Source of the DNA: Candidatus Omnitrophota bacterium
GTDB lineage: Bacteria; Omnitrophota; Omnitrophia; Omnitrophales; JACQQS01
Assembly (NCBI GenBank): GCA_016206925.1
Contig: JACQQS010000017.1
Location: forward strand, 2,393 to 66,392
DNA: 64,000 nucleotides
Direction of reading: 5' to 3'
Below the pieces are notes generated by a model. The model was not told where the DNA came from and did not search any database. It saw only the letters and a program-made list of their open reading frames with translations. The translations under genes were made by a program, and so were the position numbers. This document shows, in pieces, positions 19,975 to 37,487 of the stretch (position 1 is the stretch's first letter; each line of letters opens with the position of its first letter).

Positions 19975-19980
19975 AAGCAC

Positions 19981-20484
19981 ATGATCGCTGCATTTTATCT
20001 CATCTCTGTGGTTTTGATCGTCTCAGCGGTCCTTGCGGTTTCTCTACGCAATCTAATCTACTGTACACTGTGCGCATCGGTAGTCTTTATCAGCTCTGCC
20101 GCCCTCTTTTTTCTTCTGAAGGCGGACTTCATAGGCGTCGTTCAAATCCTCATCTACGTCGGCGCCGTTGCGACACTACTTTTATTTGCCGTTATGCTCA
20201 CGAAAAATCTGGTCAGCAGGCAATATTATGTCGGCCAAAAGAGAAAATGGTCTTACGGCATTTTTACGGCTTCGGCTGTACTTTGGGTGCTTATCGGTTC
20301 CATCCGTTCGCAGACAAATCTTGCGGAACTTGTCACAGCCGATCATCAACTTTCCGTCGTTTCGCTCGGAAAAGAAATGCTGACCGCGTTTTTGCTTCCT
20401 TTTGAGGTGGCGTCCCTCCTTTTAACAGCCGCCATGATCGGAGGTATCGTTATCGCCTTGGAGGAGAAAAAGAAGTCGTCATGA
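19981..20484 (+). CDS. nuoJ: complex I subunit J (copy 1)
   Basis: Polytopic, with VQILIYVGAVATLLLF and a C-terminal FEVASLLLTAAMIG. Confidence 0.85.
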   Translation: MIAAFYLISVVLIVSAVLAVSLRNLIYCTLCASVVFISSAALFFLLKADFIGVVQILIYVGAVATLLLFAVMLTKNLVSRQYYVGQKRKWSYGIFTASAVLWVLIGSIRSQTNLAELVTADHQLSVVSLGKEMLTAFLLPFEVASLLLTAAMIGGIVIALEEKKKSS

Positions 20485-20792
20485 CTATTCCGCTTTCGCA
20501 CTATTTGGCCGTAAGCGCGGCGCTCTTCTCGATAGGTCTCTTTGGAGCGCTTACACGCAGAAGCGCAATTATTGTGCTGATTGGAATTGAAATTATGATG
20601 AATGCCGCCAATTTGAATTTAATTGCTTTCTGGCGCTATTCGGACGGCACACGCGCAACCGGACAATTGTTCACGTTTTTCGGCATTACCATTGCGGCAG
20701 CCGAAGTCGCGGTCGGTTTGGCGATCGTTATCTCCGTTTACCGGCTATTTCAGTCTACAAACGTGAATGAAATCAGTGATATGAAGAAATAG
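20481..20792 (+). CDS. nuoK: complex I subunit K (copy 1)
   Basis: 103 aa, 3 TM helices. IGIEIMMNAANL and AAAEVAVGLAIV. Confidence 0.9.
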   Translation: MTIPLSHYLAVSAALFSIGLFGALTRRSAIIVLIGIEIMMNAANLNLIAFWRYSDGTRATGQLFTFFGITIAAAEVAVGLAIVISVYRLFQSTNVNEISDMKK

Positions 20793-20800
20793 GAGTGTGT

Positions 20801-20826
20801 GTCATTCCCACGAAAGCGGGGATGAC
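20801..20826. repeat. REP-like hairpin unit GTCATTCCCACGAAAGCGGGGATGAC between nuoK and nuoL
   Basis: Same unit family as 18754-18810. It is a self-complementary imperfect palindrome. Confidence 0.75.
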
Positions 20827-20836
20827 AAACTTAACC

Positions 20837-22870
20837 ATGATTCTCGATCATCTCTATCTCATACCTTTACTGCCGTTCCTGGCCACGGCATTTACGGCTT
20901 TCCTCAAAAGGCCCCAGCGCTCGCTTTCAAGCGGAACGGTTATTCTAGCCATGTCCGTGTCCTGCGTTCTTGCGCAATGGGCACTCTGGACTACAATCAC
21001 TCAAGCACACCACGGCGAAGTTTTCCGGCACGCAACCAGCTTTGAATGGCTCAGGACAGGAACGCAGGCGCTTCAGCTCGGCCTCGTCCTAGATCCTCTT
21101 TCTGCTTCAATGGTTTCCATGGTCACATTTGTTGGGCTGCTTATCTTTATCTATTCAACGGGCTATATGCACGAGGATAAGAACTACACCCGCTTTTTCT
21201 GCTTTCTGTCTCTTTTCGGAGGATCTATGCTCGGCCTCGTGCTTTCGAATAGTCTTGTTCTCATGTTTATTTTTTGGGAACTGGTGGGGGTCTGCTCCTA
21301 CGCGCTCATCGGATTCTGGTATCACAAACCGTCCGCTGCCGAAGCAGCCAAAAAGGCATTTATCACCACACGCATAGGCGATGTGGGATTCTTCATCGGC
21401 CTTCTTTATCTTTATGCGAAATCGGGAAACCTTATGCTTTTCGATTCCACCGCCGGTCTCGGCGTTCTCGACCAGGCTAATTTGGCGAAGCTGGAGCAAA
21501 TGACGGTCACGCTACCGCTTTTCGGCGTCGCAGCCGTTTCAACCGTAATTGCCCTTTTGCTTTTTTGCGGCGCCATGGGCAAATCGGCTCAGTTCCCGCT
21601 TCACGTTTGGCTGCCGGACGCCATGGAAGGCCCCACTTCCGTTTCTGCGCTCATTCATGCCGCGACCATGGTGGCTGCCGGAGTATTTATGATCGCGCGC
21701 ATGTTTCCCATTTTCGCACTGGGGACGCGTCACGGAGAGATGTCCACCGCAATGACGGTCGTTGCAAGCATCGGAAGTTTCACCGCGCTTTTTGCCGCGC
21801 TCATTGCCGTCGCGCAGAATGACATCAAGCGTGTTCTGGCTTACTCAACAATAAGTCAGTTGGGCTACATGGTTACCGGTCTAGGGCTCGGCAGTGTCGC
21901 TTCGGGATTTTTCCATCTTATCACGCATGCTTTCTTTAAAGCCCTTCTCTTTCTCGGATCGGGCAGTGTTATTCACGGCTGCCACGGTGAACAGGATATG
22001 TTGAAAATGGGAGGACTCAGAAAAACCATGCCGACAACCGCATGGACTTACTTTGTGGGAACGCTCGCGCTCGCTGGAATCTTTCCTTTATCGGGATTCT
22101 GGAGCAAGGATGAGATTCTTCTTTATGCGTACCACCAAAACAAAGCGATTTACTTTATCGGATCGGCTGGCGCATTTCTAACGGCTTTCTATATGTGCCG
22201 GCAGATCGTGCTTGTTTTCTTCGGAAAACAGCGCTCGCATGATTTCCACGCGCACGAAAGTCCTGGTTCCATGCTCTGGCCGCTCAGAATCCTGGCTTTT
22301 TTTGCAATTACACTCGGCATCGTCGGTTGCCCATATTATCGCGGAAATTTGTTCCACCACTTCATTTCACCCGAACATCACGGCTTAGAACCATCCATGA
22401 CGGTCATGCTGAGTTCAACGGTTATTGCTCTATCCGGATTGATTTTGGGATTCCTGGTCTACGGCCGATCCAAAGCCGTTGAAAAAGGAACGGATCCGCT
22501 CAGGAATACGCTTGGCCTCCTTCACATCATTCTCGAAAACAAGTTTTATTTCGACGAGCTTTACCGAAACACGGCTCTTCGTGCTGCAAACTTTCTTGCC
22601 TCATTCTTTCGCGCCTTTGATCAGCTCATCATTGACGGGATTCTCCATACGGTCGGATTCATCGCGCTCACTCTATCTACGTTTAACCAGTGGTGCGATA
22701 ATTTCTTTATTAACGGCGGTTTCGACCGGAGTTGCTCGGGCATTCTGCGGGGCGGCGAAACAATGTCGGCTTTGCAGACGGGCCGCATTCAGGATTACCT
22801 GCGATTCACAGCTTTGGGAACCGTGTTTTTTTATTTGGCGTACATGATAACCTTGATTTTGCAGCCGTGA
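20837..22870 (+). CDS. nuoL: complex I subunit L (copy 1) with a lengthened lateral-helix region
   Basis: MILDHLYLIPLLPF start (alternative ATG at 20822 inside the hairpin). [23 protein letters not shown]-terminal amphipathic region carries a 26-aa tandem duplication. Confidence 0.9.
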   Translation: MILDHLYLIPLLPFLATAFTAFLKRPQRSLSSGTVILAMSVSCVLAQWALWTTITQAHHGEVFRHATSFEWLRTGTQALQLGLVLDPLSASMVSMVTFVGLLIFIYSTGYMHEDKNYTRFFCFLSLFGGSMLGLVLSNSLVLMFIFWELVGVCSYALIGFWYHKPSAAEAAKKAFITTRIGDVGFFIGLLYLYAKSGNLMLFDSTAGLGVLDQANLAKLEQMTVTLPLFGVAAVSTVIALLLFCGAMGKSAQFPLHVWLPDAMEGPTSVSALIHAATMVAAGVFMIARMFPIFALGTRHGEMSTAMTVVASIGSFTALFAALIAVAQNDIKRVLAYSTISQLGYMVTGLGLGSVASGFFHLITHAFFKALLFLGSGSVIHGCHGEQDMLKMGGLRKTMPTTAWTYFVGTLALAGIFPLSGFWSKDEILLYAYHQNKAIYFIGSAGAFLTAFYMCRQIVLVFFGKQRSHDFHAHESPGSMLWPLRILAFFAITLGIVGCPYYRGNLFHHFISPEHHGLEPSMTVMLSSTVIALSGLILGFLVYGRSKAVEKGTDPLRNTLGLLHIILENKFYFDELYRNTALRAANFLASFFRAFDQLIIDGILHTVGFIALTLSTFNQWCDNFFINGGFDRSCSGILRGGETMSALQTGRIQDYLRFTALGTVFFYLAYMITLILQP

Positions 22871-22873
22871 TCT

Positions 22874-24421
22874 ATGGAATTGCCTGCGCTTAGCTTAATT
22901 ACATTTTCCCCGCTTGCCGGCGCATTCTTGCTGATATTTTTATCCGGCAAGGACGAAAAGATCATAAAAGGCGTTTCTTTGGCTGCAAGCTTTCTGCCTT
23001 TGATCATACTGACCAATGTGTGGTCCCGGTTTGACCCGTTGTCGGCATCACTGCAATTGATTGAGCGCGTTCCTTGGATACCGGTAATGGGCGCGGAGTA
23101 TTTTCTCGGCGTGGACGGTCTTGGCATGTTGCTCGTTCTCCTGACGGCCATTATTTCCCCCATCGCTGTCCTTGCATCTTTCGGGATACATGAGCGCCCG
23201 AAAGCATACATGCTTTTATTTCTGATTCTTCTTACAGGAATTTTTGGCGTATTCACGGCGCAAAATTTCTTTCATTTCTTCCTATACTGGGAAATCGGCC
23301 TTGTGCCCATGTTTTTTCTCATCAAGCAATGGGGCGCGGAAAACCGCGATTATGCGGCTTTTAAATTTTTCGTGTTTACGCTTTTTGGAAGTATCGCAAT
23401 GCTTCTTGCGTTCCAAGTCATCTTTCTTGCGACAGGCACGTTTGACTTTGTGAGGCTTTCCGAAATGGGCAGAAGCGGCGAGCTTTCAAAACTTCTCGCA
23501 CAATTCGCATCCAAGGCAGGAATTCCGTGGCAGGCAAGCACACTTTCCCTCATTGGATTTCTGGCCGTTTCTCTGGCATTTACAATCAAGGTGCCCATCT
23601 GGCCGTTCCATACCTGGCTCCCCGACGCACACACGCAGGCGCCAACACCGGCTTCCATAGTGCTGGCCGCTCTTCTGCTTAAAATGGGAACGTACGGTTT
23701 TTTAAGAATCGCCATGCCGCTTTTTCCGGAGACCGCCAAAGCGCTTGCTGAACCTCTGGCTTATTTCGCGCTCGCAAGCATCATATTCGGCGCGTTTGCA
23801 GCCATGGCCCAGCGGGATCTAAAACGCATGATTGCCTACTCCTCGATCAATCACATGGGTTACTGCATGCTTGGAATTTTTGCAATCGCTTCTATGTCTT
23901 CGACGGATGTTGAAGCCAAGGCCGCCGCGTTGGGAGGATCCATTCTTCAAATGTTTAACCATGGAATCACCGCTGCCGCACTTTTCTTCATGGTGGGTGT
24001 GATTTATGACCGCAAGCATACCCGCAATTTAGAGAAATTTGGAGGTCTGCGCGCCATTATGCCGGTCTATGCCGGACTTATGGTCATTTCTACATTTGCC
24101 TCTGTCGGTCTCCCCGGATTGAACGGGTTTGTAAGCGAATTCCTGATTTTCCGCGGGACTTTTGTTGTGTTTCAACCCCTTACCATTCTGGCGACGATCG
24201 GGCTGGTTGTGACGGCTTTGTACTACCTGCGCATGATCCAGCAGATGTTCCTCGGCCCGCTCAATCCGGATTGCGAAGGCCTTCCCGACATGTCAAAAAG
24301 GGAAATATTCGTCGCTTCGCCGCTCATCGCGCTTATGTTTTTGATCGGAATATGGCCGGGACCTATGCTCAAGCTTACGAATGCGGTGGCTCTCAATTTA
24401 ATCGGAGTTTTTCAGCTATGA
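22874..24421 (+). CDS. nuoM: complex I subunit M (operon 1, first copy)
   Basis: WLPDAHTQAPTPASIVLAALLLKMGTYGFLR. 515 aa. Confidence 0.9.
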   Translation: MELPALSLITFSPLAGAFLLIFLSGKDEKIIKGVSLAASFLPLIILTNVWSRFDPLSASLQLIERVPWIPVMGAEYFLGVDGLGMLLVLLTAIISPIAVLASFGIHERPKAYMLLFLILLTGIFGVFTAQNFFHFFLYWEIGLVPMFFLIKQWGAENRDYAAFKFFVFTLFGSIAMLLAFQVIFLATGTFDFVRLSEMGRSGELSKLLAQFASKAGIPWQASTLSLIGFLAVSLAFTIKVPIWPFHTWLPDAHTQAPTPASIVLAALLLKMGTYGFLRIAMPLFPETAKALAEPLAYFALASIIFGAFAAMAQRDLKRMIAYSSINHMGYCMLGIFAIASMSSTDVEAKAAALGGSILQMFNHGITAAALFFMVGVIYDRKHTRNLEKFGGLRAIMPVYAGLMVISTFASVGLPGLNGFVSEFLIFRGTFVVFQPLTILATIGLVVTALYYLRMIQQMFLGPLNPDCEGLPDMSKREIFVASPLIALMFLIGIWPGPMLKLTNAVALNLIGVFQL

Positions 24422-25962
24422 TCCTGTCTTCAACAATTTTCATCCCCCTGGGCGCTGCTACCCTCGTGATGCTTATGAAACCCCAATGGAGACGTGAAAT
24501 CAAAATCATCTCAGCCATGTCCGGGGTGCTCTGTCTCGTCATTTCCGCATACCTCTGTCTTACCTATGACACGGCTAAAGGCGGGCTTCAATTTGTCGAA
24601 ATGCGCCCATGGATTCCGACGCTCGGCGCAAGTTACTACCTCGGCGTGGACGGCATGAACCTCTCTTTAGTACTGCTTACCGCGTTCATCATGCTCACCG
24701 GAGTTTTTATCGCCTGGAATATAGACGACCGGACAAAGGAATTTTTCGCGCTTTTTCTCATTCTCGTCTCCGGCGTTTTCGGCGTGTTCGTCTCTATGGA
24801 TCTTTTTCTGCTTTTTATTTTCTACGAGCTGGCCGTTCTACCTATGTACCTCCTGATCGGCTATTGGGGTTCCACCAGAAAAGAGTACGGCGCCATGAAA
24901 CTGACGCTCTATCTTTTAGCGGGAAGCGCGCTTCTCTTTTTTGGAATGCTTGCCCTTTACTTTAAGGCCAATATCTGGAGTTTCAATCTGACCGAACTGG
25001 CAAAGATCAGCTATCCGGAATCTTTCCAGAAATGGGTTTTCCCTTTTATTTTTGTCGGCTTCGCCGTTCTCGGAGGCCTCTGGCCTTTGCACACCTGGTC
25101 CCCCGTCGGACACGTTGCGGCTCCAACTTCCGTGAGCATGCTGCACGCCGGCGTTCTTATGAAACTCGGAGCTTACGGCTGCCTCCGTGTCGCTATCCTG
25201 ACTTTCCCGCAGGGCGCTCAATTTTGGGCACCTTACATCGCTGCGCTGACGGCAGTGAATATTGTTTACGGCTCCATGGTAGCCATGGTGCAGACGGATA
25301 CAAAATATGTCATTGGATATTCCAGCGTGAGTCATATGGGATTTGTGATACTCGGACTTTGTACGCTGAACGAGGCGGGAATATCGGGCGCCGTGCTTCA
25401 AATGTTTTCGCATGGAATCATGACGGGGCTTTTCTTTGCCGTGGTCGGCCGGTTCATTTACGACCGTACGCACACACGAGAACTGAAGGACTTGGGCGGC
25501 CTTAGAAAACCCCTGCCCTGGGCTAACGTGGCGTTTATTATTGCCGGCCTGGCTTCGATGGGTCTGCCCGGCTTATCCGGCTTTATTGCCGAACTCCATA
25601 TTTTAATCGGCGTTTGGGAACGGTTCCCCCTCATTGCCGCACTCTGCGGAATTGCCATCGTCATCACCGCGGCATATATTTTGAGGGTTATTCACCGCAC
25701 ATTTTACGGAGAGCTGAATCCGAAATTTGCAAGTCTCCCGCCGGAAACCATTCAGGAAAAAGTGAGTGTTGCTATACTTTGCGCAGTGCTCATCGTAGTC
25801 GGTATATATCCCGTCGTTCTCCTTGATACCATCCACTCGGCGGTTGATCCCACGGTTAAGCTGCTTCACCACGTGCAGCCGGCGGTGCCGCTTGAGCAAA
25901 TAACGCCGCCAACAACCTCGGTTCAAGCTGTAACCGGCGCCGTAGCAACGGTGACGGTATGA
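24418..25962 (+). CDS. nuoM: complex I subunit M-like (operon 1, second, more divergent copy)
   Basis: ATGA overlap with the preceding nuoM. HTWSPVGHVAAPTSVSMLHAGVLMKLGAYG. 514 aa. Confidence 0.85.
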   Translation: MILSSTIFIPLGAATLVMLMKPQWRREIKIISAMSGVLCLVISAYLCLTYDTAKGGLQFVEMRPWIPTLGASYYLGVDGMNLSLVLLTAFIMLTGVFIAWNIDDRTKEFFALFLILVSGVFGVFVSMDLFLLFIFYELAVLPMYLLIGYWGSTRKEYGAMKLTLYLLAGSALLFFGMLALYFKANIWSFNLTELAKISYPESFQKWVFPFIFVGFAVLGGLWPLHTWSPVGHVAAPTSVSMLHAGVLMKLGAYGCLRVAILTFPQGAQFWAPYIAALTAVNIVYGSMVAMVQTDTKYVIGYSSVSHMGFVILGLCTLNEAGISGAVLQMFSHGIMTGLFFAVVGRFIYDRTHTRELKDLGGLRKPLPWANVAFIIAGLASMGLPGLSGFIAELHILIGVWERFPLIAALCGIAIVITAAYILRVIHRTFYGELNPKFASLPPETIQEKVSVAILCAVLIVVGIYPVVLLDTIHSAVDPTVKLLHHVQPAVPLEQITPPTTSVQAVTGAVATVTV

Positions 25963-27473
25963 ATTATATGACGGTTCTCTATCATTTAATTCCCGAAACT
26001 ACGATTACTATTCTCATTTTTGTCATTCTGGGCATTGATCTTTTCCTGATTAGAAATAAGCCTTTGACCTTTCGAAATCAATTCATCGGTTTGACTACAG
26101 GAATGGGTCTGGCCTTGATTACCATCTGGATTGTCCTAAAGCAGCTCCCTCTCCAGGAGCCCGTCAGGCTTCTAGGAGATATGCTTGTTTTGGATCCTAT
26201 CGCTATTTTTACGAAGATCATCCTTATGGTCATCACCGTAATCACCGTGCTCTTTGCAATAAGCGGTGACTTCACGAAGCATGTTTCTGAATTTTATGCC
26301 ATGCTTCTCTTTGCTTTGCTCGGCATGATTTTTATGATTCAGGCCGAAGAGCTCATCATGATCTTCGTCGCGCTGGAATTGACCAGCTTGAGTCTCTACA
26401 TCATGACAGCCTTCTCAACCAGACTCCGCGAATCAGCCGAAGCAGCGCTCAAATATTTCCTTTTCGGCTCGCTTTCCTCCGCTTTCATGTATTTCGGCCT
26501 CTCCTACATTTACGGTGTAACTGGGTTTACGGATCTTACCAATATTGCCGCCCATTTGACGCCGCTTCCCCGGCTCATGATTTCAACGGATCATATCCTT
26601 GTAATTGTTGGAATGCTCTTCGTTATGGTCGGATTGGGATTTAAGATCGCCGTCGTTCCTTTCCATCTCTGGGCACCCGAAGCTTATCAGGGCGCGCCGA
26701 CACCCGTAACGGCCTATATTGCGACGGGATCTAAACTGGCAAGCTTTGTAGTTCTCAGTAAAGTTCTTTTTCTGGGCTTCCGGCAGATGGAAGGTAGCAG
26801 TTTCCACTATTTTTGGGAAGCCGGATGGTCACCTTTACTCGTCACCATCAGCATTCTCTCGATGACGCTCGGAAATTTGGCGGCCATGCGGCAGAAAAAT
26901 TTAAAACGCCTTTTGGCCTATTCCAGTATTGCGCACAGCGGATATATCCTGTTGGGAGTTGTCGCGGCAACGCATATCGGTACGGTAGCCATGTTTTACT
27001 ATTTGGTCGCCTACGTGTTCACAAATCTCGGAGCATTTGGATTTATCACAGCCGTTGCCAAACACACCGGGGGCGAAAACCTTGAAAACCTGAAAGGCCT
27101 CGCGAAACGCTCGCCGCTGCTTTCGCTGCTCATGAGCATATTCGTTCTTTCCCTCGCAAGCATTCCGCCGCTCGGGGGATTTTTCGGCAAGTTCTACTTA
27201 TTTCTCTCGGTCGTCGGCCGTGATCAGGAGCGGTTCGGCCTTTTGTGGGTCGCCGGCATCGGAATTATTAACACCATGCTTTCGCTTTACTACTATTTGA
27301 AGATCTTGAAGCAGATGTACATTTTGAAATCAGACAACGAGACAAGAATCGAAATACCGTTTTACATGAGTTCCGCGCTTGCGCTTTGCGCCGTCATCGT
27401 CCTTTTGACAGGCATCTTTCCCCAGCCGCTCGTAACCATCCTCAGCCGCTCCATCACATTTTTTACCGTTTAG
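25959..27473 (+). CDS. nuoN: complex I subunit N (copy 1)
   Basis: HLWAPEAYQGAPTPVTAYIATGSKLA and LLAYSSIAHSGY. Confidence 0.9.
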   Translation: MNYMTVLYHLIPETTITILIFVILGIDLFLIRNKPLTFRNQFIGLTTGMGLALITIWIVLKQLPLQEPVRLLGDMLVLDPIAIFTKIILMVITVITVLFAISGDFTKHVSEFYAMLLFALLGMIFMIQAEELIMIFVALELTSLSLYIMTAFSTRLRESAEAALKYFLFGSLSSAFMYFGLSYIYGVTGFTDLTNIAAHLTPLPRLMISTDHILVIVGMLFVMVGLGFKIAVVPFHLWAPEAYQGAPTPVTAYIATGSKLASFVVLSKVLFLGFRQMEGSSFHYFWEAGWSPLLVTISILSMTLGNLAAMRQKNLKRLLAYSSIAHSGYILLGVVAATHIGTVAMFYYLVAYVFTNLGAFGFITAVAKHTGGENLENLKGLAKRSPLLSLLMSIFVLSLASIPPLGGFFGKFYLFLSVVGRDQERFGLLWVAGIGIINTMLSLYYYLKILKQMYILKSDNETRIEIPFYMSSALALCAVIVLLTGIFPQPLVTILSRSITFFTV

Positions 27474-27503
27474 TCTGGTTGCCATTACAGAGGCAAATCT
27501 GAG

Positions 27504-27531
27504 TTGACTTTAATTCTTATATAAGTATACT
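27504..27531 (+). promoter_or_regulatory. sigma70-type promoter candidate for nuoJKLMN cluster 2
   Basis: TTGACT (27504-27509), 16-nt spacer, TATACT (27526-27531). Confidence 0.5.
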
Positions 27532-27614
27532 TAGCGGCTTAAGCCACTTTTGTGTCTCTTTCTCCTAAGTTAACGCATTCATTGAATTAATGGATTTGAG
27601 CAGTTAGGTTTGCA

Positions 27615-28121
27615 GTGATTACTTTCTTATCTTTTATTTTCACCCTCGTCGGACTCACAACAGCCATTCTTGTGGTAACGAGCAAGGTTCCGATGAACGC
27701 CGCGCTGTTTCTCGTTGTGACTCTCTTCACCGTTGCGGCAAATTACGTTCTCCTCGGCGCTGAATTCCTGGCCGCTGTTCAGGTCATTGTCTACGCCGGC
27801 GCCATCATGGTGCTGATTATTTTTGTCATACAGCTTGTGGGTTTTCAACCTTCCAAGGACGGTTCCGTTCAGAAGCAAACCCCTATCGCCATCGTTGCCG
27901 CAGGCCTCCTATTCGTACAAATCGCTTTTTACACAGTCCGTTCGTTGACTCAACTAAACGGAATCCAGAAACCCGTCCAAGCCGCAGTCGACCACACGGC
28001 ATCCTTCAGCCAAACTCTATTCACGAAGTACCTGCTGCCTTTCGAAACGGCCTCGATACTTCTGCTCGTCGCCATTGTCGGAACGGTCCTGCTGGCACAA
28101 CACAAAGGCATCCGCGAATGA
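27615..28121 (+). CDS. nuoJ: complex I subunit J (copy 2)
   Basis: GTG start. [16 protein letters not shown] and [14 protein letters not shown]. Confidence 0.85.
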
Positions 28122-28420
28122 ACCTGGATACCATAACGCTCATATTTGGGACGGGCCTTTTTTTCATAGGTATAACAGGCGTTCTCATCCGGAGAAACGC
28201 CATTGTCGTCTTAATGTGTATCGAACTCATCCTGAACGGCGTCAACTTAACTTTCATCACATTCAGCCACATACATGGAAACCTGGCCGGCCAGGTTGCG
28301 GCTATTTTTGTTATTGTAGTTGCGGCAGCCGAAGCAGCTGTCGGGCTTGCTATTGTCATTGCTGTATTCCGCCGTCATCCTTCCATTAACATCGATGAAT
28401 TTAACGTGCTTAAATGGTAG
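28118..28420 (+). CDS. nuoK: complex I subunit K (copy 2)
   Basis: [12 protein letters not shown] and [12 protein letters not shown]. Confidence 0.9.
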
Positions 28421-30408
28421 CGCTTATTCCTTTACTTCCCGCTTTGGGTGCGGCCGTCAATGGCCTGTTCGGGCGAAGATACATCAAGGAAAACGCCCAT
28501 TGGGTTGCCGTTGGCGCCTGCGGTCTTTCTTTTCTGGCAGCTGTTTTTACTTTCACAAGCTTTCTACGCGAGCCGCAGAGCTACGAAGTGCGGATGTTTG
28601 AGTGGATTGCTGTAGATCCCTTGCGCATCGAACTGGCGTTCCTCGTTGATCCTCTAAGCATGCTTATGGCCATGGTTGTTACGGGAGTGGGTTTTCTCAT
28701 TCATATCTATTCGATCGGTTACATGCACGGCGACGGCGGATATCACCGCTATTTTGCTTACCTCAATCTTTTCATGACGGCCATGCTTCTTCTGGTCTTG
28801 GCCAACAATTATCTTTTGATGTTTCTCGGCTGGGAGGGCGTTGGGCTTTGTTCATACCTGCTCATTGGATTTTGGTTTCATAAAGATTCTGCCGCCAATG
28901 CCGCAAAGAAAGCTTTCCTCGTAAACCGGATCGGAGACGCCGGATTCATTTTGGCCCTTTTCCTAATTTATGGGCAATGCAAAAGCCTGGTCTTTCATGA
29001 TGTCATGTCCCAGGCACATGCTTTCTCAACCGGCTTGGCCACGGCTATTGGAATTCTCTTATTTGTCGGAGCCATGGGGAAATCGGCCCAGATTCCACTT
29101 TACGTATGGCTGCCGGACGCTATGGAAGGACCTACTTCTGTCTCCGCATTGATTCATGCGGCAACCATGGTCACGGCCGGTGTCTATATGGTGGCTAGAA
29201 ATTCGGCCATCTATGCGCTGGCACCGGCTGCACTTAATTTCATGGCTTCTGTCGGCGCAATTACCGCACTTTTTGCGGCAAGCATTGCCCTGGTTCAAAG
29301 GGACATAAAGAAGGTACTTGCTTATTCGACGGTAAGCCAGCTCGGTTACATGTTTCTCAGCTGCGGTGTGGGCGCTTATGTAAGCGGCATGTTTCATTTA
29401 ATGACACACGCATTCTTCAAAGGCCTTCTTTTCCTCGGATCCGGAAGCGTGATTCACGCGCTCGGCGGCGAACAAGACATGCAGCACATGGGTGGTTTAA
29501 GAAAACATATGCCCATTACCGCAGCAACGTTTACCATCGCAACCCTCGCCATCGCCGGAATTCCGCCGCTTGCCGGCTTCTGGAGCAAGGATGAAATCCT
29601 GGCGGAAACCTTCAAGAACGGGCATAAACTCCTCTGGGGAATCGGTGCATTAACGGCGCTCATGACATCCTTCTACATGTTCCGCCTGCTTTTCCTGACC
29701 TTCTACGGAAAGTCGCGCGTTCACCATGACAAGGAACATCATCTTCATGAATCGCCCCGGACCATTACGATTCCTCTTTCGATACTTGCCTTTCTTTCGA
29801 TTTTTGGCGGCGTCCTGCCCGGCTTCCCTCCCGAACGAGGCTGGATCCACGGTTTTCTTTCTCCGGCGATCTCAAGCGTTCACCATGCGAAGGAAATCCT
29901 GCATGGCGCAGCCGAACACGGCGCGCATGCCCTGTCATTGCTGGACTTGACATTGATGGCTGTTTCTATCGGCGCGGCGCTGATGGGTTTGGCTGCCGCG
30001 TGGTACTTTTATCTCATCCGGCCGGCGCTTCCCGGACAATGGGCTTCCCGATTGAAATCAATTCACACACTCCTATTCAATAAATATTGGGTGGATGAAA
30101 TATATCTCAGTGTATTTGTGCGTCCCCTGCTTAAGCTCTGTAACCGCCTGTGGGATTTTGATCTGCAGGGCATTGATGGAATCGTAAACGGAGCATCACG
30201 CGTTGCCGTAAAAAGCGCTGAAGAGTCGGGCAGATTTGATCTCAAATTTATCGATGGCGTTATAAACGATATCGGAAAACTTTTCGACAAGTGGCACGAC
30301 ATCTTAAGACGGTGGCAAACGGGTTTCGTACAGAATTATGCGCTCGTCATGGTCATCGGTGTATTGGTTCTGGCAACCAGCATGTTTTTCATCCCATATC
30401 ACTTTTGA
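28414..30408 (+). CDS. nuoL: complex I subunit L (copy 2) with a lengthened lateral-helix region
   Basis: [23 protein letters not shown]-terminal [11 protein letters not shown].../[11 protein letters not shown]... 26-aa tandem repeat. Confidence 0.9.
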
Positions 30409-30416
30409 AAAATTTA

Positions 30417-30516
30417 AAATTAAAAGTGAAAAATGTAAAAGAAAAAACTAAAGAAATTTATTAAAGCAAAAAAGTTCAAAAAGCTCTTTATCTTTTTACT
30501 TTTTCATTTTTAATTT
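30417..30516. repeat. AT-rich imperfect inverted repeat (about 26-bp arms, 48-nt loop) between nuoL2 and nuoM
   Basis: AAATTAAAAGTGAAAAATGTAAAAGA (30417-30442) versus the reverse complement of TCTTTTTACTTTTTCATTTTTAATTT (30491-30516). One mismatch and two 1-nt indels. Confidence 0.65.
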
Positions 30517-30530
30517 CTAAGAGGATTTTT

Positions 30531-32102
30531 ATGACACATATCTTTGGCACTCCCATTCTCACGCTTTTATGCTTCTTGCCCCTCATCGGAACGCTGGCTA
30601 TCGTGATTTTCACGCGTAAAGATGAGGAGAAAAAAATCAAAAACATCGCGCTGTGGTTCTCGGTGGCGGCTTTTCTCATCTCGCTTTTGATCCTTCCCCG
30701 TTTTCGAACTGACACGGCGGAAATGCAGTTTGTAGAACGAGCCGAATGGATTCCCGCTATCGGGGCAGAATATCTCCTGGGCATCGACGGTATCAGCATT
30801 CTGCTTATCCTGCTGACCACACTTCTAACCGTCATCGCTGTTTTATCTTCATCTACAGCCATTACTGATCGGCTAAAAGAATACTATGGCTCGCTGCTTT
30901 TGCTTGAAACGGGGATGCTCGGAGTATTCATGGCTCTTGATTTCGTTCTCTTTTACGTTTTCTGGGAAGTCATGCTGGTGCCCATGTATTTTCTGATCGG
31001 AATTTGGGGTGGACCCAACCGGCTTTACGCGGCCATCAAATTTTTTCTCTATACGCTCTTCGGGAGCGTTTTGATGCTCCTCGGAATTCTGGCGCTTTAT
31101 TTCCTGAATGCAGATCCGGCATTCGGCAGCGGGGAGCATACATTCAATATGATTACACTTTTTAATGTCCAGCTGCCTTTCCATTTTCAATGCTGGATAT
31201 TTGCCGCGTTCTTTATCGGATTTGCCATCAAGGTCCCTGTCTTCCCGTTTCACACATGGCTGCCGGACGCCCACGTCGAAGCGCCCACCGCGGGAAGCGT
31301 CATCCTCGCCGGCGTTCTGCTAAAAATGGGTACGTACGGCTTCATTCGCGTATGCCTTCCGATGCTGCCCCAGGCATCGGAATTTTTTGCGCCTTTTGTC
31401 GCTGTGTTGGCCATGATCGGCATAGTTTACGGCGCCTTAGTGGCCATGGCGCAAACCGATATCAAAAAATTGGTGGCCTACTCAAGCGTGAGCCATCTTG
31501 GTTTTGTAATGCTCGGGCTTTTTGCCATGAATTCCCAGGGGATAACGGGCGGCGTGCTTCAGATGATCAATCACGGCATATCGACAGGGGCGCTCTTCTT
31601 GCTGGTGGGCATTATTTACGAAAGAAGGCATACGCGGAAAATACAGGAATTCGGCGGCCTAGCGCATGTCATGCCCGTTTATGCGGCGCTCTTTGCCGTC
31701 ACCCTATTCTCATCCATCGGCCTCCCGGGTTTGAACGGATTTGTCGGTGAGTTCCTTATTTTGCTCGGCGCGTTTCAAAAGGAACTCTGGTACGCCGCTG
31801 TGGCTGTTTCCGGAATTGTGCTCGGCGCCGGATATATGCTGTGGCTTTATCAAAGAGTCATGTTTGGAACGGTCACGCATCCCGAAAACAAAATGTTAAA
31901 GGATTGCTCGAGGCGCGAGGTTCTCTACATGGCACCTCTCATCATACTCATGTTGTGGATCGGGATTTACCCGAAACCTTACCTCCGCTTGATTGAATCA
32001 AGCGTTATGGGCACGATTCAATCTCTAAAGCGCCCAAGCGCCGGCCCAGATTTGATGGCTATGGCTTCGCAGACGCCGCCGGAAACTGCGGCACTTATCT
32101 AA
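30531..32102 (+). CDS. nuoM: complex I subunit M (cluster 2)
   Basis: WLPDAHVEAPTAGSVILAGVLLKMGTYGFIR. Strong RBS AAGAGGA. Confidence 0.9.
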   Translation: MTHIFGTPILTLLCFLPLIGTLAIVIFTRKDEEKKIKNIALWFSVAAFLISLLILPRFRTDTAEMQFVERAEWIPAIGAEYLLGIDGISILLILLTTLLTVIAVLSSSTAITDRLKEYYGSLLLLETGMLGVFMALDFVLFYVFWEVMLVPMYFLIGIWGGPNRLYAAIKFFLYTLFGSVLMLLGILALYFLNADPAFGSGEHTFNMITLFNVQLPFHFQCWIFAAFFIGFAIKVPVFPFHTWLPDAHVEAPTAGSVILAGVLLKMGTYGFIRVCLPMLPQASEFFAPFVAVLAMIGIVYGALVAMAQTDIKKLVAYSSVSHLGFVMLGLFAMNSQGITGGVLQMINHGISTGALFLLVGIIYERRHTRKIQEFGGLAHVMPVYAALFAVTLFSSIGLPGLNGFVGEFLILLGAFQKELWYAAVAVSGIVLGAGYMLWLYQRVMFGTVTHPENKMLKDCSRREVLYMAPLIILMLWIGIYPKPYLRLIESSVMGTIQSLKRPSAGPDLMAMASQTPPETAALI

Positions 32103-32105
32103 CTC

Positions 32106-33578
32106 ATGAACCAGACGCTTCCGAATTTTCCGTTGTCCATCCTGTATCCCGAAATGATCTTAACCATTTCGGCATGCGTGCTCATTTTTCTGGCACGCGC
32201 TTTTGCGCGGGCGCATAAACACACGCTCAGCAGCATTGCCTTTTTTTCCGTTATAGCTGCGATGGGCTGCGCGGGAAGTCTTTGGAATTTCCCGAGGTGG
32301 GAGAATTTGATCGAATTCTTTCTGATCGACCGATATGCCATTTTCTTCAAACTGGTGCTTCTGGTCATATGTGCGCTGACTATCCTCATTTCCAAACGGT
32401 TTTTGTCGGATACCGACACGGAGCGCGGCGAGTATTACGGCCTGATTCTACTCGCGACCATCGGTATGATGATCATGGTTTCCGGGGCAGATCTCATCAC
32501 GATTTACCTGGGCCTCGAGACTATGGCCATCGCAAGCTACATTCTCGCCGCGTATTTCCGATCGGACGAACGGTCATCCGAAGCCGGTTTGAAATATTTT
32601 CTTCTGGGTGCGTTCAATTCGGGGATTATCCTCTACGGCATGGCCTTGCTTTACGGCGCAACGGGTACGTTTAACCTGGCCGAAATGCACCGGATCGTAT
32701 CGGGTTTATCCGGACCCGCCGAACTTCGTCTTCTCTATTTTTCATTAATACTTCTCGTAGCGGGATTTGGTTTCAAAATAGCGGCGGTACCTTTTCATAT
32801 GTGGGCTCCCGATGTCTATGAAGGAGCCCCGACGCCTGTCGCGGCATTTCTGTCCGCGGGTTCGAAAACTGCGAGCCTGGCTGTCCTCATCCGGGTCTTC
32901 ACCGTTGCTTTCGGTTTATTTACTGAGCTTTGGCAGCTATGGATTGCCTATATTTCCGGTCTCACGATGCTATTCGGTAATATCGCGGCACTAAGACAAA
33001 CCAACGTTAAAAGAATGCTGGCCTATTCAAGCATCGCGCACGTGGGCTACATGCTCCTTGGCCTGGCCAGCGGAATCGAGATGGGATCTTCCGCCGTTTT
33101 AATGTATGCGTTCGTTTATCTGTTCGCAAATATCGGCCTCTTTGCTTCTCTTATTCTTCTTACCCGGAATGGCGTCCCCAAAGAATCGACCGCTGATTTC
33201 TCGGGTCTTTCGAGAAGACACCCTCTGATTGCATTTGCCGTCACCATATTTCTCTTATCCCTCACGGGTATTCCCCCTACCGCCGGTTTTATCGGAAAAT
33301 TTTATCTTTTCATGGCAGCCGTCAAATCCGGTTACATAAAGCTCGCCGTGGTGGGCGTTCTCGCAAGCGTCATTTCTCTCTTCTATTACATGCGGATTGT
33401 CATGGCCATGTACATGGAAAAACCGGCGGACACCGATGCTGCGGCGCTTCAGCCTTCAACAAGTTTAGGATACGCTTTCTCCATCATGGTCTTTGTCATT
33501 TTGGCTGTAGGAATTTATCCCGGCCCCCTGCTCGATCTTGCACGTGAGTCCCTATCTTCGATAAAGATTTTGAGTTAA
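32106..33578 (+). CDS. nuoN: complex I subunit N (copy 2)
   Basis: HMWAPDVYEGAPTPVAAFLSAGSKTA and MLAYSSIAHVGY. Confidence 0.9.
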   Translation: MNQTLPNFPLSILYPEMILTISACVLIFLARAFARAHKHTLSSIAFFSVIAAMGCAGSLWNFPRWENLIEFFLIDRYAIFFKLVLLVICALTILISKRFLSDTDTERGEYYGLILLATIGMMIMVSGADLITIYLGLETMAIASYILAAYFRSDERSSEAGLKYFLLGAFNSGIILYGMALLYGATGTFNLAEMHRIVSGLSGPAELRLLYFSLILLVAGFGFKIAAVPFHMWAPDVYEGAPTPVAAFLSAGSKTASLAVLIRVFTVAFGLFTELWQLWIAYISGLTMLFGNIAALRQTNVKRMLAYSSIAHVGYMLLGLASGIEMGSSAVLMYAFVYLFANIGLFASLILLTRNGVPKESTADFSGLSRRHPLIAFAVTIFLLSLTGIPPTAGFIGKFYLFMAAVKSGYIKLAVVGVLASVISLFYYMRIVMAMYMEKPADTDAAALQPSTSLGYAFSIMVFVILAVGIYPGPLLDLARESLSSIKILS

Positions 33579-33845: not shown

Positions 33846-35126
33846 ATGAGAAGAAATAGTGCGGCGCTGTTACCAATCCTATTAATGGCCGGTTTGATAT
33901 GTACGCCTATGGCTTTCGCGGATGAGGGCCCGGATGATTTAAAGGCTGAGATTAACGCTCTTAAGAATCGTATAAATCAATTGGAAACTAAACTTGCTAC
34001 CGTTCAACCCGCCGCGCAAATTCCAGGCGGACATGTCGGATTGGAGGCAGCAGCACCTTCTTTAGAAGTTCCCAGCCTTGTGCGGGGAATAGGCATTTCT
34101 GGCTACGTAGATACCATGTACACGCATAATTTTAACACGCCGGATTCCATTACCAATGTCGGAAGAGTTTTTGATCGGACCGCAAACGGTTTCAACATGA
34201 ATGCCGCTGAGGTCGTTATCCAAAAACCCGTTTCGGCGGACAGCCGTGCCGGTTTCCGTGCCGATATATTTACGGGTAATGATGCGGAAGTAATCGGATC
34301 GGCAGGACTAGGCCTCGGGACCAATGAATTTGAGATTCAACAAGCGTTCGTGGAACTCCTTGTACCCACCGGCAACCTTGCCTCCTGGATGAACGATATT
34401 GACCTAAAAGCGGGTAGGTATGTCACCATGAACGGCGCCGAAGTGATTGAAAGCAAGGACAATTGGAATACCTCACGCGGTCTTTTATTTGGATACGCCA
34501 TCCCTTTCACACACACCGGTATCCGAAGCACGTACACGTTTGATAACGGGTGGGACATATGTCTCGGCGTTAATAACGGCTGGGATGTTACTGACGATAC
34601 CAATAACGGAAGGACCATTGAGTCACACATTGGCTTAAATAGCATTGAGCTGCCTTGGGATTCTTCCATTACCGTCGGCTATCAGTACTACGGCGGCCCT
34701 GAACGTGCAGCGCAAGATACCGATTGGCGTCACCTACACGATATCGTGGCCATATTGAAGACACCTTGGGAGCCCCTGACGTTAATGTACAACTTGGACT
34801 ACGCTTTTGAGGCAAACCTGATTGGCGATAATGCCAAAGGCGATTGGTGGGGGCATGCCGTTTATGCCAGATATCAGTTCACGGATAAGTGGGCAGCTTC
34901 CGTCCGTGCTGAAGTTCTTAACGATGAGGATGGTGTCCGTGTTGTCGCCGGCACACAAGCCGAGTGGTATGAAATTACCGGTACGTTAGAATATAAGCCG
35001 TGGGAAAACACCATTACCCGTCTTGAATTACGTTCTGATCATGCCGACAAAGATGTGTTTACTGGAAACAACCAGGTGAATGATAACCAGACATCGCTCA
35101 GCAGCGAAATAATGTATCTATTCTAG
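33846..35126 (+). CDS. outer-membrane beta-barrel porin-like protein
   Basis: Signal peptide, short coiled coil (LKAEINALKNRINQLETKL), alternating amphipathic beta-strand pattern rich in Tyr/Gly/Asp/Asn, and a C-terminal aromatic residue (MYLF). Confidence 0.65.
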   Translation: MRRNSAALLPILLMAGLICTPMAFADEGPDDLKAEINALKNRINQLETKLATVQPAAQIPGGHVGLEAAAPSLEVPSLVRGIGISGYVDTMYTHNFNTPDSITNVGRVFDRTANGFNMNAAEVVIQKPVSADSRAGFRADIFTGNDAEVIGSAGLGLGTNEFEIQQAFVELLVPTGNLASWMNDIDLKAGRYVTMNGAEVIESKDNWNTSRGLLFGYAIPFTHTGIRSTYTFDNGWDICLGVNNGWDVTDDTNNGRTIESHIGLNSIELPWDSSITVGYQYYGGPERAAQDTDWRHLHDIVAILKTPWEPLTLMYNLDYAFEANLIGDNAKGDWWGHAVYARYQFTDKWAASVRAEVLNDEDGVRVVAGTQAEWYEITGTLEYKPWENTITRLELRSDHADKDVFTGNNQVNDNQTSLSSEIMYLF

Positions 35127-35248: not shown

Positions 35249-35285
35249 GCGAGGCAGGCTGCGGGTGTTTCGGATCGCGTAAAAC
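35249..35285. repeat. 37-nt direct repeat, copy A (downstream of orf178)
   Basis: GCGAGGCAGGCTGCGGGTGTTTCGGATCGCGTAAAAC is identical to 35832-35868 except for one T/C difference. Confidence 0.9.
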
Positions 35286-35821
35286 TACTTGCGTAACTGG
35301 CTTTTTACCAGCACATAGGTGTCCGGTCTTTCAGGAATGCGCTTAAGACAAATTCTGTAACGTCTGTCTTTGGGTGCCGCAGATTCAATTCCAAACGTCT
35401 TAAACGGATCCGAAACCGCGATATTCAGCCAGCCTTTTGGTGCAGTTTTTTCCGGGTCTTCAAAATTCAGCGTGGCCACTTTAAGTATGTCTTTATCCTG
35501 AAGGGCCTGCTGGAATTGTTCGAGTTTTGATGGGCCTCCTCTCTTCAGCAGCGTAAACTCACCGAGGATCACCCTGTTTATCTTAAAGAGAACAACTGCT
35601 GCGGGCTTTCCCGACGTTTCAAGCTCTTGTTCAATAGCGTCAACGGTTTCTCCGCTCTCGATGGGTTTCACATAAATCGGCGTTGCGTCCAATACAACAT
35701 CATATTCGCGCATAAACCACGAAGCTTCTGAGATTCCCAAAGAGAATAGAGTTCCACAGGTCAAGAGGGTTATAACTTCAAGGAACGTTAAGCGGTTGAT
35801 AAAATGAAATCTTAATTTCAT
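35285..35821 (-). CDS. membrane-anchored hypothetical protein, last gene of the minus-strand nuo operon
   Basis: 178 aa with an N-terminal hydrophobic anchor. The ATG sits 5 nt after the nuoI stop. No recognisable motif. Bracketed by the 37-nt repeat. Confidence 0.5.
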   Translation of the reverse strand: MKLRFHFINRLTFLEVITLLTCGTLFSLGISEASWFMREYDVVLDATPIYVKPIESGETVDAIEQELETSGKPAAVVLFKINRVILGEFTLLKRGGPSKLEQFQQALQDKDILKVATLNFEDPEKTAPKGWLNIAVSDPFKTFGIESAAPKDRRYRICLKRIPERPDTYVLVKSQLRK

Positions 35822-35826: not shown

Positions 35827-36399
35827 TTACTGCGAGGCAGGCTGCGGGCGTTTCGGATCGCGTAAAACGATAGCGCCGTGGTTTTCCGGATTCAGCAGAT
35901 CATCCATCGTCAGATACATTCCCTCACGGCTGTAGGCGGCTATATCCAAGATCTGCGTATCCATTCGAATCGCGTCTTCCGGACAGGCTTCCACGCAAAA
36001 TCCGCAATACACACATATCCCCAAATCAATGTCAAAACGCTTTGGGCGCTTCTCGATGTTCGGATCCGGATGTTCATCAGCAACAATATAAATACAATGC
36101 GCCGGGCAAACCGTTTCGCACATCATACAAGCCACGCAACGGGGAGAGCCGTTACTCCTCTTCGTCAGGCGATGGCGGGATCTAAGCCGCGGAGCAAGGG
36201 GCCGCTTTTCCTCCGGATATTGATAAGTCACGGCGGCGGGAACATCCTTAAACAGGTCAAATTTGTGAAGAATATGCAATGTCAGATTTCTGAAAAAATG
36301 CCAGCCCGTAAGCGCCAAGCCCTGAAAAATGGCGGGAAAATAAATCCTGACCATGAACGACATGTTGGGCTGTTTCACTACTTTCGTTGTGACCGGCAT
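35827..36399 (-). CDS. nuoI: complex I subunit I (copy 2)
   Basis: CVACMMCETVCP and CVYCGFCVEACP. Confidence 0.9.
   Translation of the reverse strand: MPVTTKVVKQPNMSFMVRIYFPAIFQGLALTGWHFFRNLTLHILHKFDLFKDVPAAVTYQYPEEKRPLAPRLRSRHRLTKRSNGSPRCVACMMCETVCPAHCIYIVADEHPDPNIEKRPKRFDIDLGICVYCGFCVEACPEDAIRMDTQILDIAAYSREGMYLTMDDLLNPENHGAIVLRDPKRPQPASQ
35832..35868. repeat. 37-nt direct repeat, copy B (the 3' coding end of nuoI copy 2)
   Basis: GCGAGGCAGGCTGCGGGCGTTTCGGATCGCGTAAAAC encodes the nuoI C-terminus ...VLRDPKRPQPAS. Confidence 0.9.
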
Positions 36400-36401
36400 A
36401 G

Positions 36402-37487
36402 TTAATTTCCTACCATGACCAAAATCACCGCTGTTGCCAGGAGATTCGCTAGAGAAAGCGGCAGCATCATTTTCCAGCCCACTTTCATAAGCTGGTCATA
36501 ACGAAACCGCGGGAGCGTCCATCGAATGAGCATGAAAAACCAGCAGAAAGCCAGAACTTTTGCGGTAAACGACCCAATCTGCATCAGAGTAACCAAAAGA
36601 TGCGGCAAGCCCAAAACAAGCGTGCCTCCCCAATGGAAACCGCCCGATCTCAGGAACGGAACCTGCCAACCGCCAAAAAAAAGCGCTGTAGACATGCACG
36701 CCAAGAGGATCGTCTCCACATAATCCGTGAAGAAATACATGCCGAACTTCATGCCGCTATATTCCGTAAAGTAGCCGATGATTTCCGACTCGGCTTCCGG
36801 AATATCGTAGGGAATGCGTTTTGTTTCTGCGATTCCGGCCGCCAAAAAGAGCAAAAATCCGAGCGGCTGCATGAACACGCCCCAGGCAGGCAGGAAGCCA
36901 AATAAAAGCCGGCCCTGCCACCGGATCATTTCCTGCAGATTCAAAGTGCCGTAGATCATCACCAATCCCATAATGGTAAGCCCGAGAGTAACTTCGTAAG
37001 AAATCATCTGTGCTGAAGCACGGAGGCCGCCGAGGAAAGCGTAATTGTTGTTGGACGAATAACCCGCCAATACGACACCGTAGACAACCATGGAAAGCAT
37101 GGCCAATATGTAAAGCACGCCTATATTCAAATTGGCCGGCTGAAGCCCGATTTCCATGTCGCCAATGCGCAGCACGTCACCAAAGGGAATGGCAGCGAAT
37201 GTAATGAGCGCAAAAACCATGGACAGGAATGGCGCTAATGTATGAAGCACGCGGTGTCCGGAAGGCGGAACAAAGTCTTCCTTAAAAAACATCTTGATGG
37301 CATCCGCCAAAGGATGGAATAGCCCCAATAATCGAAACGGACCGATATGGGCCCTATTCGCCCCGATGCGGTCCTGCATCACAGCGCTCTGCTTTCGTTC
37401 AAGCCAGGTGTGAAGCGCGGCAAGATTAATCACATTAAAGATCATGATGCCGGAGAGTATCGTCGAGCTGATCACATGTTCTAACAT
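36402..37487 (-). CDS. nuoH: complex I subunit H (copy 2)
   Basis: WLERKQSAVMQDRIGANR and KRIPYDIPEAESEIIGYFTEYSG. Confidence 0.9.
   Translation of the reverse strand: MLEHVISSTILSGIMIFNVINLAALHTWLERKQSAVMQDRIGANRAHIGPFRLLGLFHPLADAIKMFFKEDFVPPSGHRVLHTLAPFLSMVFALITFAAIPFGDVLRIGDMEIGLQPANLNIGVLYILAMLSMVVYGVVLAGYSSNNNYAFLGGLRASAQMISYEVTLGLTIMGLVMIYGTLNLQEMIRWQGRLLFGFLPAWGVFMQPLGFLLFLAAGIAETKRIPYDIPEAESEIIGYFTEYSGMKFGMYFFTDYVETILLACMSTALFFGGWQVPFLRSGGFHWGGTLVLGLPHLLVTLMQIGSFTAKVLAFCWFFMLIRWTLPRFRYDQLMKVGWKMMLPLSLANLLATAVILVMVGN

Follow-up and report, generated by a model that had tools for sequence, protein, structure and literature searches.

Why should a bacterial complex I encoded with a single NuoM carry a NuoL whose lateral helix has the length associated with two? 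The question is raised by a 64,000-nucleotide stretch of a Candidatus Omnitrophota genome (contig JACQQS010000017.1, positions 2,393 to 66,392 of the forward strand), which we call the window. The window carries two sets of genes for NADH-quinone oxidoreductase (Nuo, complex I): operon 1, with two nuoM genes, and cluster 2 (nuoJ2-K2-L2-M2-N2), with one. The antiporter-like subunit NuoL ends in an extension in which a lateral amphipathic helix (HL) lies between transmembrane helices 15 and 16 (TM15 and TM16), and in NuoL2, the NuoL of cluster 2, HL is lengthened by 26 residues. Chadwick et al. (2018, ISME J), as cited in later papers, describe a lengthened HL of the same size and position in the NuoL of the two-NuoM (2M) complex I, and Yu et al. 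(2022, mBio; PMC9040806) report for Ca. Manganitrophaceae that the NuoL of both Complex_I_1 and Complex_I_2 has 26 residues inserted in HL. The insertion is thus already known from the former work, and its occurrence with a single NuoM from the latter.

A tandem duplication within helix HL

Positions 30157-30312 encode residues 582-633 of NuoL2, which form two adjoining 26-residue units, 78 nt apart. A first-pass annotation of the window had proposed such a duplication from the sequence, and both its coordinates and its sequence are exact. The units share 9 of 26 residues and reach an ungapped BLOSUM62 score of 38 when compared with each other, a score that none of 100,000 shuffles attained (-30 +/- 12); an offset of 26 is also the best self-offset across the whole of NuoL2. 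At the DNA level 36 of 78 bases match, and since the third codon positions match at chance level (8 of 26) the duplication must be old. The corresponding halves of NuoL1, the NuoL of operon 1, score -12 (p = 0.07), a similarity that is not significant, in keeping with the earlier statement that the duplication is clearer in NuoL2. The unit consensus is FD..[IV]DG.VNG... These comparisons show that a unit of 26 residues within HL underwent an ancient duplication in tandem. The features concerned are listed below, with invariance scored in a 57-sequence alignment of NuoL2 relatives (A1).

28414-30408, plus strand: nuoL2, 664 aa, NADH-quinone oxidoreductase subunit L (NF005141, 760 bits against a cut-off of 556)
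30091-30105, plus strand: 'VDEIY' motif, residues 560-564, near the start of HL; the upstream landmark, with D561, E562 and Y564 invariant in A1
30157-30234, plus strand: HL unit 1, residues 582-607, the extra copy relative to canonical NuoL; D583, D588, V591 and N592 invariant in A1
30235-30312, plus strand: HL unit 2, residues 608-633, the counterpart by alignment of the one unit in canonical NuoL; N618 invariant and D609, D614 and G615 conserved in at least 90% of A1
30316-30393, plus strand: 'QTG' hinge (residues 635-637) and the C-terminal anchor helix TM16; G637 and Y642 invariant and Q635 conserved in at least 90% of A1
22616-22771, plus strand: matching 52-residue stretch of NuoL1, residues 608-659; its HL segment is also 74 residues long

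In other respects NuoL2 is an ordinary NuoL, as the family is defined by NCBIfam NF005141/TIGR01974 and Pfam PF00662+PF00361. It scores 759 bits against TIGR01974 (cut-off 407.5), its gene sits between nuoK2 and nuoM2 as expected for NuoL, and the protein is 100% identical to P0001, a NuoL entered at NCBI under the name 'MAG: Candidatus Omnitrophica bacterium' (MAG, metagenome-assembled genome). An AlphaFold2 model built with 57 homologues as input (mean predicted local distance difference test score, pLDDT, 84.5) matches NuoL/ND5/NdhF chains in Foldseek with a probability of 1.0 and TM-scores of 0.75-0.81. With a helix at residues 509-535 and a long helix at 558-663, the model has the antiporter-like fold and the extension of TM15, lateral helix and TM16 that are found in canonical NuoL (E. 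coli 3RKO/7Z7S, T. thermophilus 4HE8, P. denitrificans 8QBY), with which NuoL2 also shares the motifs 'VDE.Y', 'IDG.VNG' and 'QTG..Y'. Seven residues, E141, K223, H328, H332, K336, K392 and D393, are invariant in A1; we take them to correspond, at an about constant offset, to the E. coli proton-channel residues E144, K229, H334, H338, K342, K399 and D400.

Length and conservation of the long helix

The length of HL can be expressed as the distance from the D of 'VDE.Y', which follows TM15, to the Q of 'QTG', which precedes TM16. By this measure the segment is 74 residues long in both NuoL1 and NuoL2, 26 above canonical. Among 239 NuoLs, drawn from public loci and from representatives clustered at 50% identity, the lengths fall into two sharp peaks, 48-52 residues in 151 sequences and 74-78 in 75, and 72 of the latter 75 lie within 74-76. 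Rarer lengths are 84-86 (9 sequences) and 35, 40, 100 and 130 (one each). The 48-52 residues of canonical NuoL contain a single unit, the 74 of NuoL2 two. The single 'IDG.vNG' motif of NuoLs in the PDB (P. denitrificans, M. smegmatis) aligns with either copy in NuoL2, and in the foreign genomes that encode both kinds the paralogous NuoL has one unit where its long partner has two.

The 84-86-residue lengths belong to a class with about 36 additional residues, made up of the 26 and some 10 residues of Gly-rich sequence (e.g. 'GDGELRPGLGVNG'), which occurs with a single NuoM in Korobacteraceae and other Acidobacteriota. HL is 84 residues long in loci L056, L061, L080, L081 and L082, and 85-86 in L041, L059 and L067.

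In the AlphaFold2 model one helix, residues 558-663, runs through both units of NuoL2 with low to moderate confidence, as the first-pass annotation supposed in taking the extension to lengthen the membrane-parallel helix. If helical, the extra unit would lengthen HL by about 39 A (26 residues at 1.5 A each), roughly the width of one antiporter-like subunit. The pLDDT falls below 50 at the hinge between HL and TM16 (residues 634-642). The core of the model superposes on solved structures with root-mean-square deviations of 3.4-4.6 A, which rise to 10-12 A once HL and TM16 are included. None of the solved structures compared has a two-unit HL, and a literature search found no solved structure of a 2M or long-HL complex I.

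Both units are under constraint. Position by position, the conservation of units 1 and 2 correlates (r = 0.84) in 72 long-HL NuoLs that span many phyla, and the mean information content is 2.39 bits for unit 1, 2.13 for unit 2 and 2.35 for the flanking HL. Because the two units are constrained at the same positions, conservation argues that the extension is functional and not a relic.

Long helices and the number of NuoM genes

The long HL is general among the relatives of NuoL2. All 117 scorable sequences of the 120 closest homologues have it, 115 at 74 residues and 2 at 76; these best 120 come from Nitrospinota, Nitrospirota, Manganitrophus, Tectomicrobia/Entotheonellia, Methylomirabilales and Omnitrophica MAGs. 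The antiporter-like genes that accompany them were surveyed in the window and 86 public loci (L001-L086, 80 of them from GTDB species genomes), where every open reading frame (ORF) of at least 250 aa was classed as L, M or N. In 24 cases a NuoL of the 74-78-residue class precedes just an M and an N. Only three such NuoLs are followed by M-M-N, namely those of operon 1 and of two Thermodesulfobacteriota-type MAGs (L007 and L013). Four more main-peak sequences were listed with a partial set (M alone or N-M), and six of the 84-86-residue variants were left unbinned by the landmark pattern. Canonical NuoL is followed by M-N in 41 cases; two apparent canonical M-M-N arrangements turned out to be frameshifted single M genes. 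In one locus each from Bryobacterales, Aquificota and Vicinamibacteraceae, NCBIfam models likewise identify a single NuoM and a single NuoN behind the long-HL NuoL; in L007 they identify M, M, N.

The same arrangement prevails close to NuoL2. In its neighbor-joining (NJ) clade of 21 sequences (bootstrap 61%), all 7 known gene contexts are M,N with no second nuoM in the cluster. The J-K-L-M-N unit recurs in the closest relative, L001 (78% identical), where it again converges on nuoI; a gene for a protein of 3618 aa lies upstream of the unit, and there is no 2M operon within 10 kb. The gene for a Manganitrophus homologue in the same clade (P0010, 60% identical, locus L005) lies in an unbroken nuoA-N operon, which has EFG and a single copy each of M and N. 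With 24 long-HL loci of the M,N type against 3 of the M-M-N type, the single nuoM of cluster 2 is the norm of its class: judged by gene content, a long HL with one NuoM is what complex I of this widespread class usually has, and not a quirk of this genome.

These results bear on the first-pass annotation in several ways. Its finding of one NuoM and one NuoN in cluster 2 is confirmed by NCBIfam matches, and the window holds no other antiporter-like genes besides those of operon 1. Its interpretation stands as regards a duplication in the membrane-parallel helix together with one nuoM, and fails as regards the implied rule of one unit per extra nuoM, given the count of 24 to 3 loci. Its suggestion that cluster 2 borrows a NuoM from operon 1 finds no support as a general explanation, considering the surroundings of L001 and the seven contexts of the clade, though it may still apply to this genome.

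Tandem complete J-K-L-M-N modules such as those of the window (19981-33578) recur in unrelated MAGs (L004:1-15133, L008 and L006:3010-15133), where the NuoL of one module is canonical (634-639 aa) and that of the other has a long HL (670-673 aa). Among Acidobacteriota and Verrucomicrobiota, the long-HL cluster is often convergent to a canonical one (L010, L029, L033, L038, L074, L085).

NuoLs with three units

Six NuoLs (P0184, P0391, P0394, P0395, P0398 and P0401) have three tandem 26-residue units in HL, or 52 additional residues. The layout of two of the gene clusters concerned is given below, together with that of a syntenic relative.

L091:10001-12010 (GCA_040960625.1) and L092:10001-16: three-unit NuoL genes, in clusters of the order nuoB-C-D-[GltD-like FAD/Fe-S protein]-A-H-J-K-M-L(3 units)-N
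L093:6653-13409: syntenic two-unit relative (GCA_023251915.1) with four antiporter-like genes, J-K-L'-M-L-N, where L' is 614 aa with its own HL and TM16 and L is 647 aa with two HL units

No other antiporter-like ORF lies within +/-10 kb of the clusters in L091 and L092. On this comparison, loss of L' goes with the gain of one HL unit. The number of units is thus labile, probably through unequal crossing-over. Because a three-unit NuoL occurs with only three pump genes, the gene content of these clusters shows that helix length and pump-gene number are uncoupled.

The protein of 480-500 aa encoded between nuoD and nuoA (L091:4849-6315, L092:4876-6324, L093:2948-4447) has FAD/NAD(P)-binding domains of the GltD/SudA kind (Fer4_20, Pyr_redox_2) together with a 2x[4Fe-4S] domain resembling NuoI. 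The three clusters encode no NuoEFG and no separate NuoI, and this GltD-like protein may serve as an alternative electron-input module.

Paralogues and trees

The paralogues of the window are deeply diverged, with identities of 43% for L1/L2, 44% for M1a/M2, 39% for M1b/M2, 35% for M1a/M1b and 34% for N1/N2. These values (34-44% between the two sets) rule out cluster 2 as a recent duplicate of operon 1.

Relationships within the class were traced with NJ trees only. The 34 NuoMs that are linked to a long-HL NuoL with one M, nuoM2 among them, form one clade (bootstrap 94%). The sister of this clade (61%) is the first M (Ma) of L007 and L013, whose second M falls outside. In the best tree one clade (47%) unites the linked NuoNs, those of L007 and L013 among them. 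The tree of the NuoL core places the long-HL class in two main groups with low deep bootstraps, and a single clade was not recovered. A single origin of the long-HL class seems likely.

Gene content of the window

The complex I genes of the window and their immediate neighbours, apart from nuoL2, are as follows.

6730-15253, plus strand: V/A-type ATPase operon (subunits I, E, C, A, B, D), directly 5' of operon 1 and on the same strand
15407-27473, plus strand: operon 1, nuoA-B-C-D-I-H-J-K-L1-M1a-M1b-N1, with two NuoM and without NuoEFG
27504-27531, plus strand: TTGACT-16-TATACT, a promoter-like site within the 141 bp that separate nuoN1 from nuoJ2; it agrees with the consensus at 10 of 12 positions and is a consensus match only
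27615-33578, plus strand: cluster 2, nuoJ2-K2-L2-M2-N2, which begins 141 bp past operon 1
27615-28121, plus strand: nuoJ2 (NCBIfam NuoJ match)
28118-28420, plus strand: nuoK2 (NCBIfam NuoK match)
30531-32102, plus strand: nuoM2, 523 aa, the sole NuoM of cluster 2 (TIGR01972, 648 bits)
32106-33578, plus strand: nuoN2, 490 aa (TIGR01770, 461 bits)
35827-43655, minus strand: nuoA2-B2-C2-D2-E-F-G-H2-I2, the peripheral arm and proximal half of a 14-subunit complex, convergent with nuoJ2-N2

The antiporter-like genes of the 64-kb window are L1, M1a, M1b, N1, L2, M2 and N2, and no further one was found. The junction M1a-M1b-N1-J2-K2-L2 is also present on an independently assembled Logan contig (L090), which rules out misassembly of the tandem layout. 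Synteny in L001 and L005 suggests that the nuoA2-I2 unit with EFG pairs with J2-N2.

By the definition ascribed to Chadwick et al. (2018), operon 1 is a textbook 2M complex I (nuoA-D, I, H, J, K, L, M, M, N, without EFG). Cluster 2 agrees with the 2M complex in its HL insertion of about 26 residues but has no second nuoM, and it departs from the Nitrospira-type 2M clade, which is described as lacking NuoEFG, in that NuoE, F and G are encoded in the convergent A-I unit. The closest parallel is in Ca. Manganitrophaceae, where Complex_I_1 and Complex_I_2 likewise combine a 26-residue HL insertion with the standard three antiporter-like genes (PMC9040806). The window differs from these in its lineage ('Candidatus Omnitrophica bacterium') and in the arrangement of its 14 genes as two convergent units, of which the J-N unit directly follows a 2M operon.

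Several details of the layout may be recorded. The nuoL2/nuoM2 spacer (30409-30530) is 122 nt long, very AT-rich and has weak promoter-like matches, with a strong AAGAGGA ribosome-binding site 5' of nuoM2; the nuoL/nuoM spacer is 12 nt in L001 as against 122 nt here. In operon 1 the NuoI-like ferredoxin gene (18112-18747) precedes nuoH (18781-19974), which reverses the usual H-I order. NuoD models match two stretches of NuoD2 (40865-42250, minus strand; 461 aa), which implies an insertion of about 75 residues after about residue 316 of the predicted protein. NuoG (37481-39061, minus strand) has only 526 aa against a NuoG model of 606 positions. Between the convergent halves of complex I lie a gene for an OmpL-like beta-barrel porin (33846-35126, plus strand; Pfam BBP2, E = 3e-74) and a 178-aa ORF (35285-35821, minus strand) with one N-terminal hydrophobic segment and no family match. 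Genes for a Rieske [2Fe-2S] protein, an IscA-like Fe-S assembly protein and the cysteine desulfurase IscS (43662-45631, minus strand) are located directly upstream of nuoA2 on the same strand. Further away (55464-57947, minus strand), genes for a LuxC-like acyl-CoA reductase and a LuxE-like acyl-protein synthetase are adjacent, with a class-III aminotransferase alongside.

How may a long helix fit a complex with one NuoM?

We lean narrowly towards a complex with three pumps and a longer clamp, a reading that we give somewhat less than an even chance; it answers to the other role that the first-pass annotation allowed for the long helix. It follows from taking the gene content at face value. 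The cluster 2 complex would contain just its three encoded antiporter-like subunits, and its single nuoM would need no borrowed partner. The longer HL would act as a longer clamp, with unit 1 over NuoM and unit 2 over NuoN, and TM16 would be anchored one module nearer the peripheral arm, beside NuoK/J/A, instead of at the canonical NuoN. The long HL would then be a pre-adaptation, a platform from which 2M complexes such as those of L007 and L013 could arise repeatedly by addition of an M. Such an order of events, with the long HL preceding the second M, fits the NuoM tree, in which the Ma of L007 and L013 is sister to the clade of single Ms. A clamp is also the role suggested by mutagenesis of the E. 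coli HL, where most substitutions and insertions gave a near wild-type phenotype, which argued against a piston, although insertions of 6-7 residues between NuoL and NuoM cut pumping (PMC3274701).

A number of observations weigh against the longer clamp. The pLDDT along the HL of NuoL2 is only 56-80, dropping from about 80 to 56. The docking site assumed for TM16 is one that we infer, with no positive support of its own. The identity of TM16 and the QTG hinge between the two length classes, at matched core identity, is 0.32-0.33 as compared with 0.34-0.37 within a class; the test has little power, TM16 being only about 34% identical even within a class, and it weakly suggests that TM16 keeps the same docking partner, NuoN, and hence that a fourth subunit fills the gap. 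NuoL has two units wherever a fourth pump gene is present (operon 1, L007, L013 and L093), and because these four-pump-gene loci carry the same two units, one unit does correspond to one pump width. The clade of NuoL2 is rich in Nitrospinota, Nitrospirota, Manganitrophus and NC10, which we take to be lithoautotrophs with reverse electron transport; such organisms would gain from an extra pump. Finally, a three-unit helix of about 190 A (some 78 A longer) would, with subunit widths as estimated, roughly overshoot an arm of three pumps. The three-unit helix thus strains the clamp, and it keeps alive the idea of a helix that measures out NuoM copies, which we discuss below.

A fourth pump position could instead be filled by a paralogue encoded outside the cluster, M1a or M1b being possible candidates here, with HL spanning L, M and the extra M-like subunit to reach NuoN. 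We regard this as unlikely, though it is the alternative that we take most seriously. The 26-residue unit accompanies a fourth pump gene in the four loci just named, TM16 and the QTG hinge are the same across classes, and operon 1 ends 141 bp 5' of nuoJ2 at a junction confirmed by independent assembly. About one third of the long-HL loci adjoin another L-M-N module (L004, L006, L008, L010, L029, L033, L038 and others). Cyanobacterial NDH-1, moreover, uses unlinked NdhD/NdhF paralogues. There is also a precedent for non-operonal copies of nuoM and nuoL in Nitrospira (PMC6606698). On the other hand, in about two thirds of the long-HL loci no further antiporter-like gene occurs within +/-10 kb, the closest relative has no 2M operon within the same distance, and an unlinked essential subunit would need upkeep in more than 10 phyla. 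The extra NuoM of the L007 type (Mb) was not seen outside Thermodesulfobacteriota among the top 120 matches, with no sign there of an unlinked copy in genomes of the long-HL, one-M kind, and contigs shared with long-HL NuoLs hold only cluster-linked Ms (e.g. P0389, on a 20,263-bp contig with P0075), a weak negative. A different way of filling the arm would use HL as a molecular ruler: with 1, 2 or 3 units, it would fix the number of copies of the single NuoM that stack head to tail between NuoN and NuoL, and three genes would suffice for an L-M-M-N arm. This we consider more doubtful than an outside paralogue. It would explain why one M is the norm in long-HL clusters, why units 1 and 2, lying on identical surfaces, are constrained alike, and why close relatives have one, two or three units without matching changes in gene content; the NuoMs of long-HL clusters also form one clade and are more conserved than canonical ones (mean identity 0.63 versus 0.56). 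Against it, the extra M of L007 and L013, which shares 53% identity with Ma and branches outside, did not arise from Ma by recent duplication, and we know of no polypeptide in the complex I/Mrp superfamily that fills two non-equivalent positions.

Two further readings are less probable still. Cluster 2 may descend from a 2M complex that lost one nuoM, the extra unit being a tolerated relic, perhaps looped out or kinked, without function. The 2M clusters of the L007/L013 type are indeed close to the long-HL, one-M lineage in the M and N trees, and Yu et al. raise an 'evolutionary transition' as a possibility (PMC9040806), but the conservation of the units makes decay an improbable account. Both are kept at the same positions across many phyla (D583, D588, V591, N592 and N618 are invariant), their information content equals that of the flanking HL, and the length of HL is held almost constant at 74-76 residues, even though the third codon positions are saturated and there has therefore been ample time for decay. 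Least probable of all, to a degree that we give it very little weight, is the exchange of membrane arms proposed by the first-pass annotation, in which the J-K-L-M-N and J-K-L-M-M-N modules would each assemble with either peripheral arm. Both modules do stand in tandem in the window, as do pairs of J-K-L-M-N modules in L004/L008 and L006. However, the paralogues are deeply diverged (L1/L2 43%, N1/N2 34%), a promoter-like site of its own precedes cluster 2, homologues of the cluster form part of self-contained nuoA-N operons (L005), and the long HL would be left unexplained.

Implications for complex I in soil and groundwater bacteria

Genome papers have taken the HL insertion as proof of a fourth pump, and hence of an enzyme that moves 5 H+/2e- and can drive reverse electron transport, an inference applied to nitrite and manganese oxidisers. 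The finding that helix length and pump-gene number do not go together in many phyla, the long helix being far commoner than the extra pump gene, undermines this widely used genomic inference. Should HL act as a ruler, three genes could build a four- or five-pump complex I, the H+/e- ratio would be tunable by unequal crossing-over within nuoL without any new gene, and the long-HL, one-M complexes of Nitrospinota, Nitrospirota, NC10, Acidobacteriota and others would be unrecognised high-stoichiometry enzymes. Either a fourth pump has gone unrecognised in many complexes that are annotated as canonical in widespread soil and groundwater phyla, or helix length carries no information on pump number and the inference in print must be revised.

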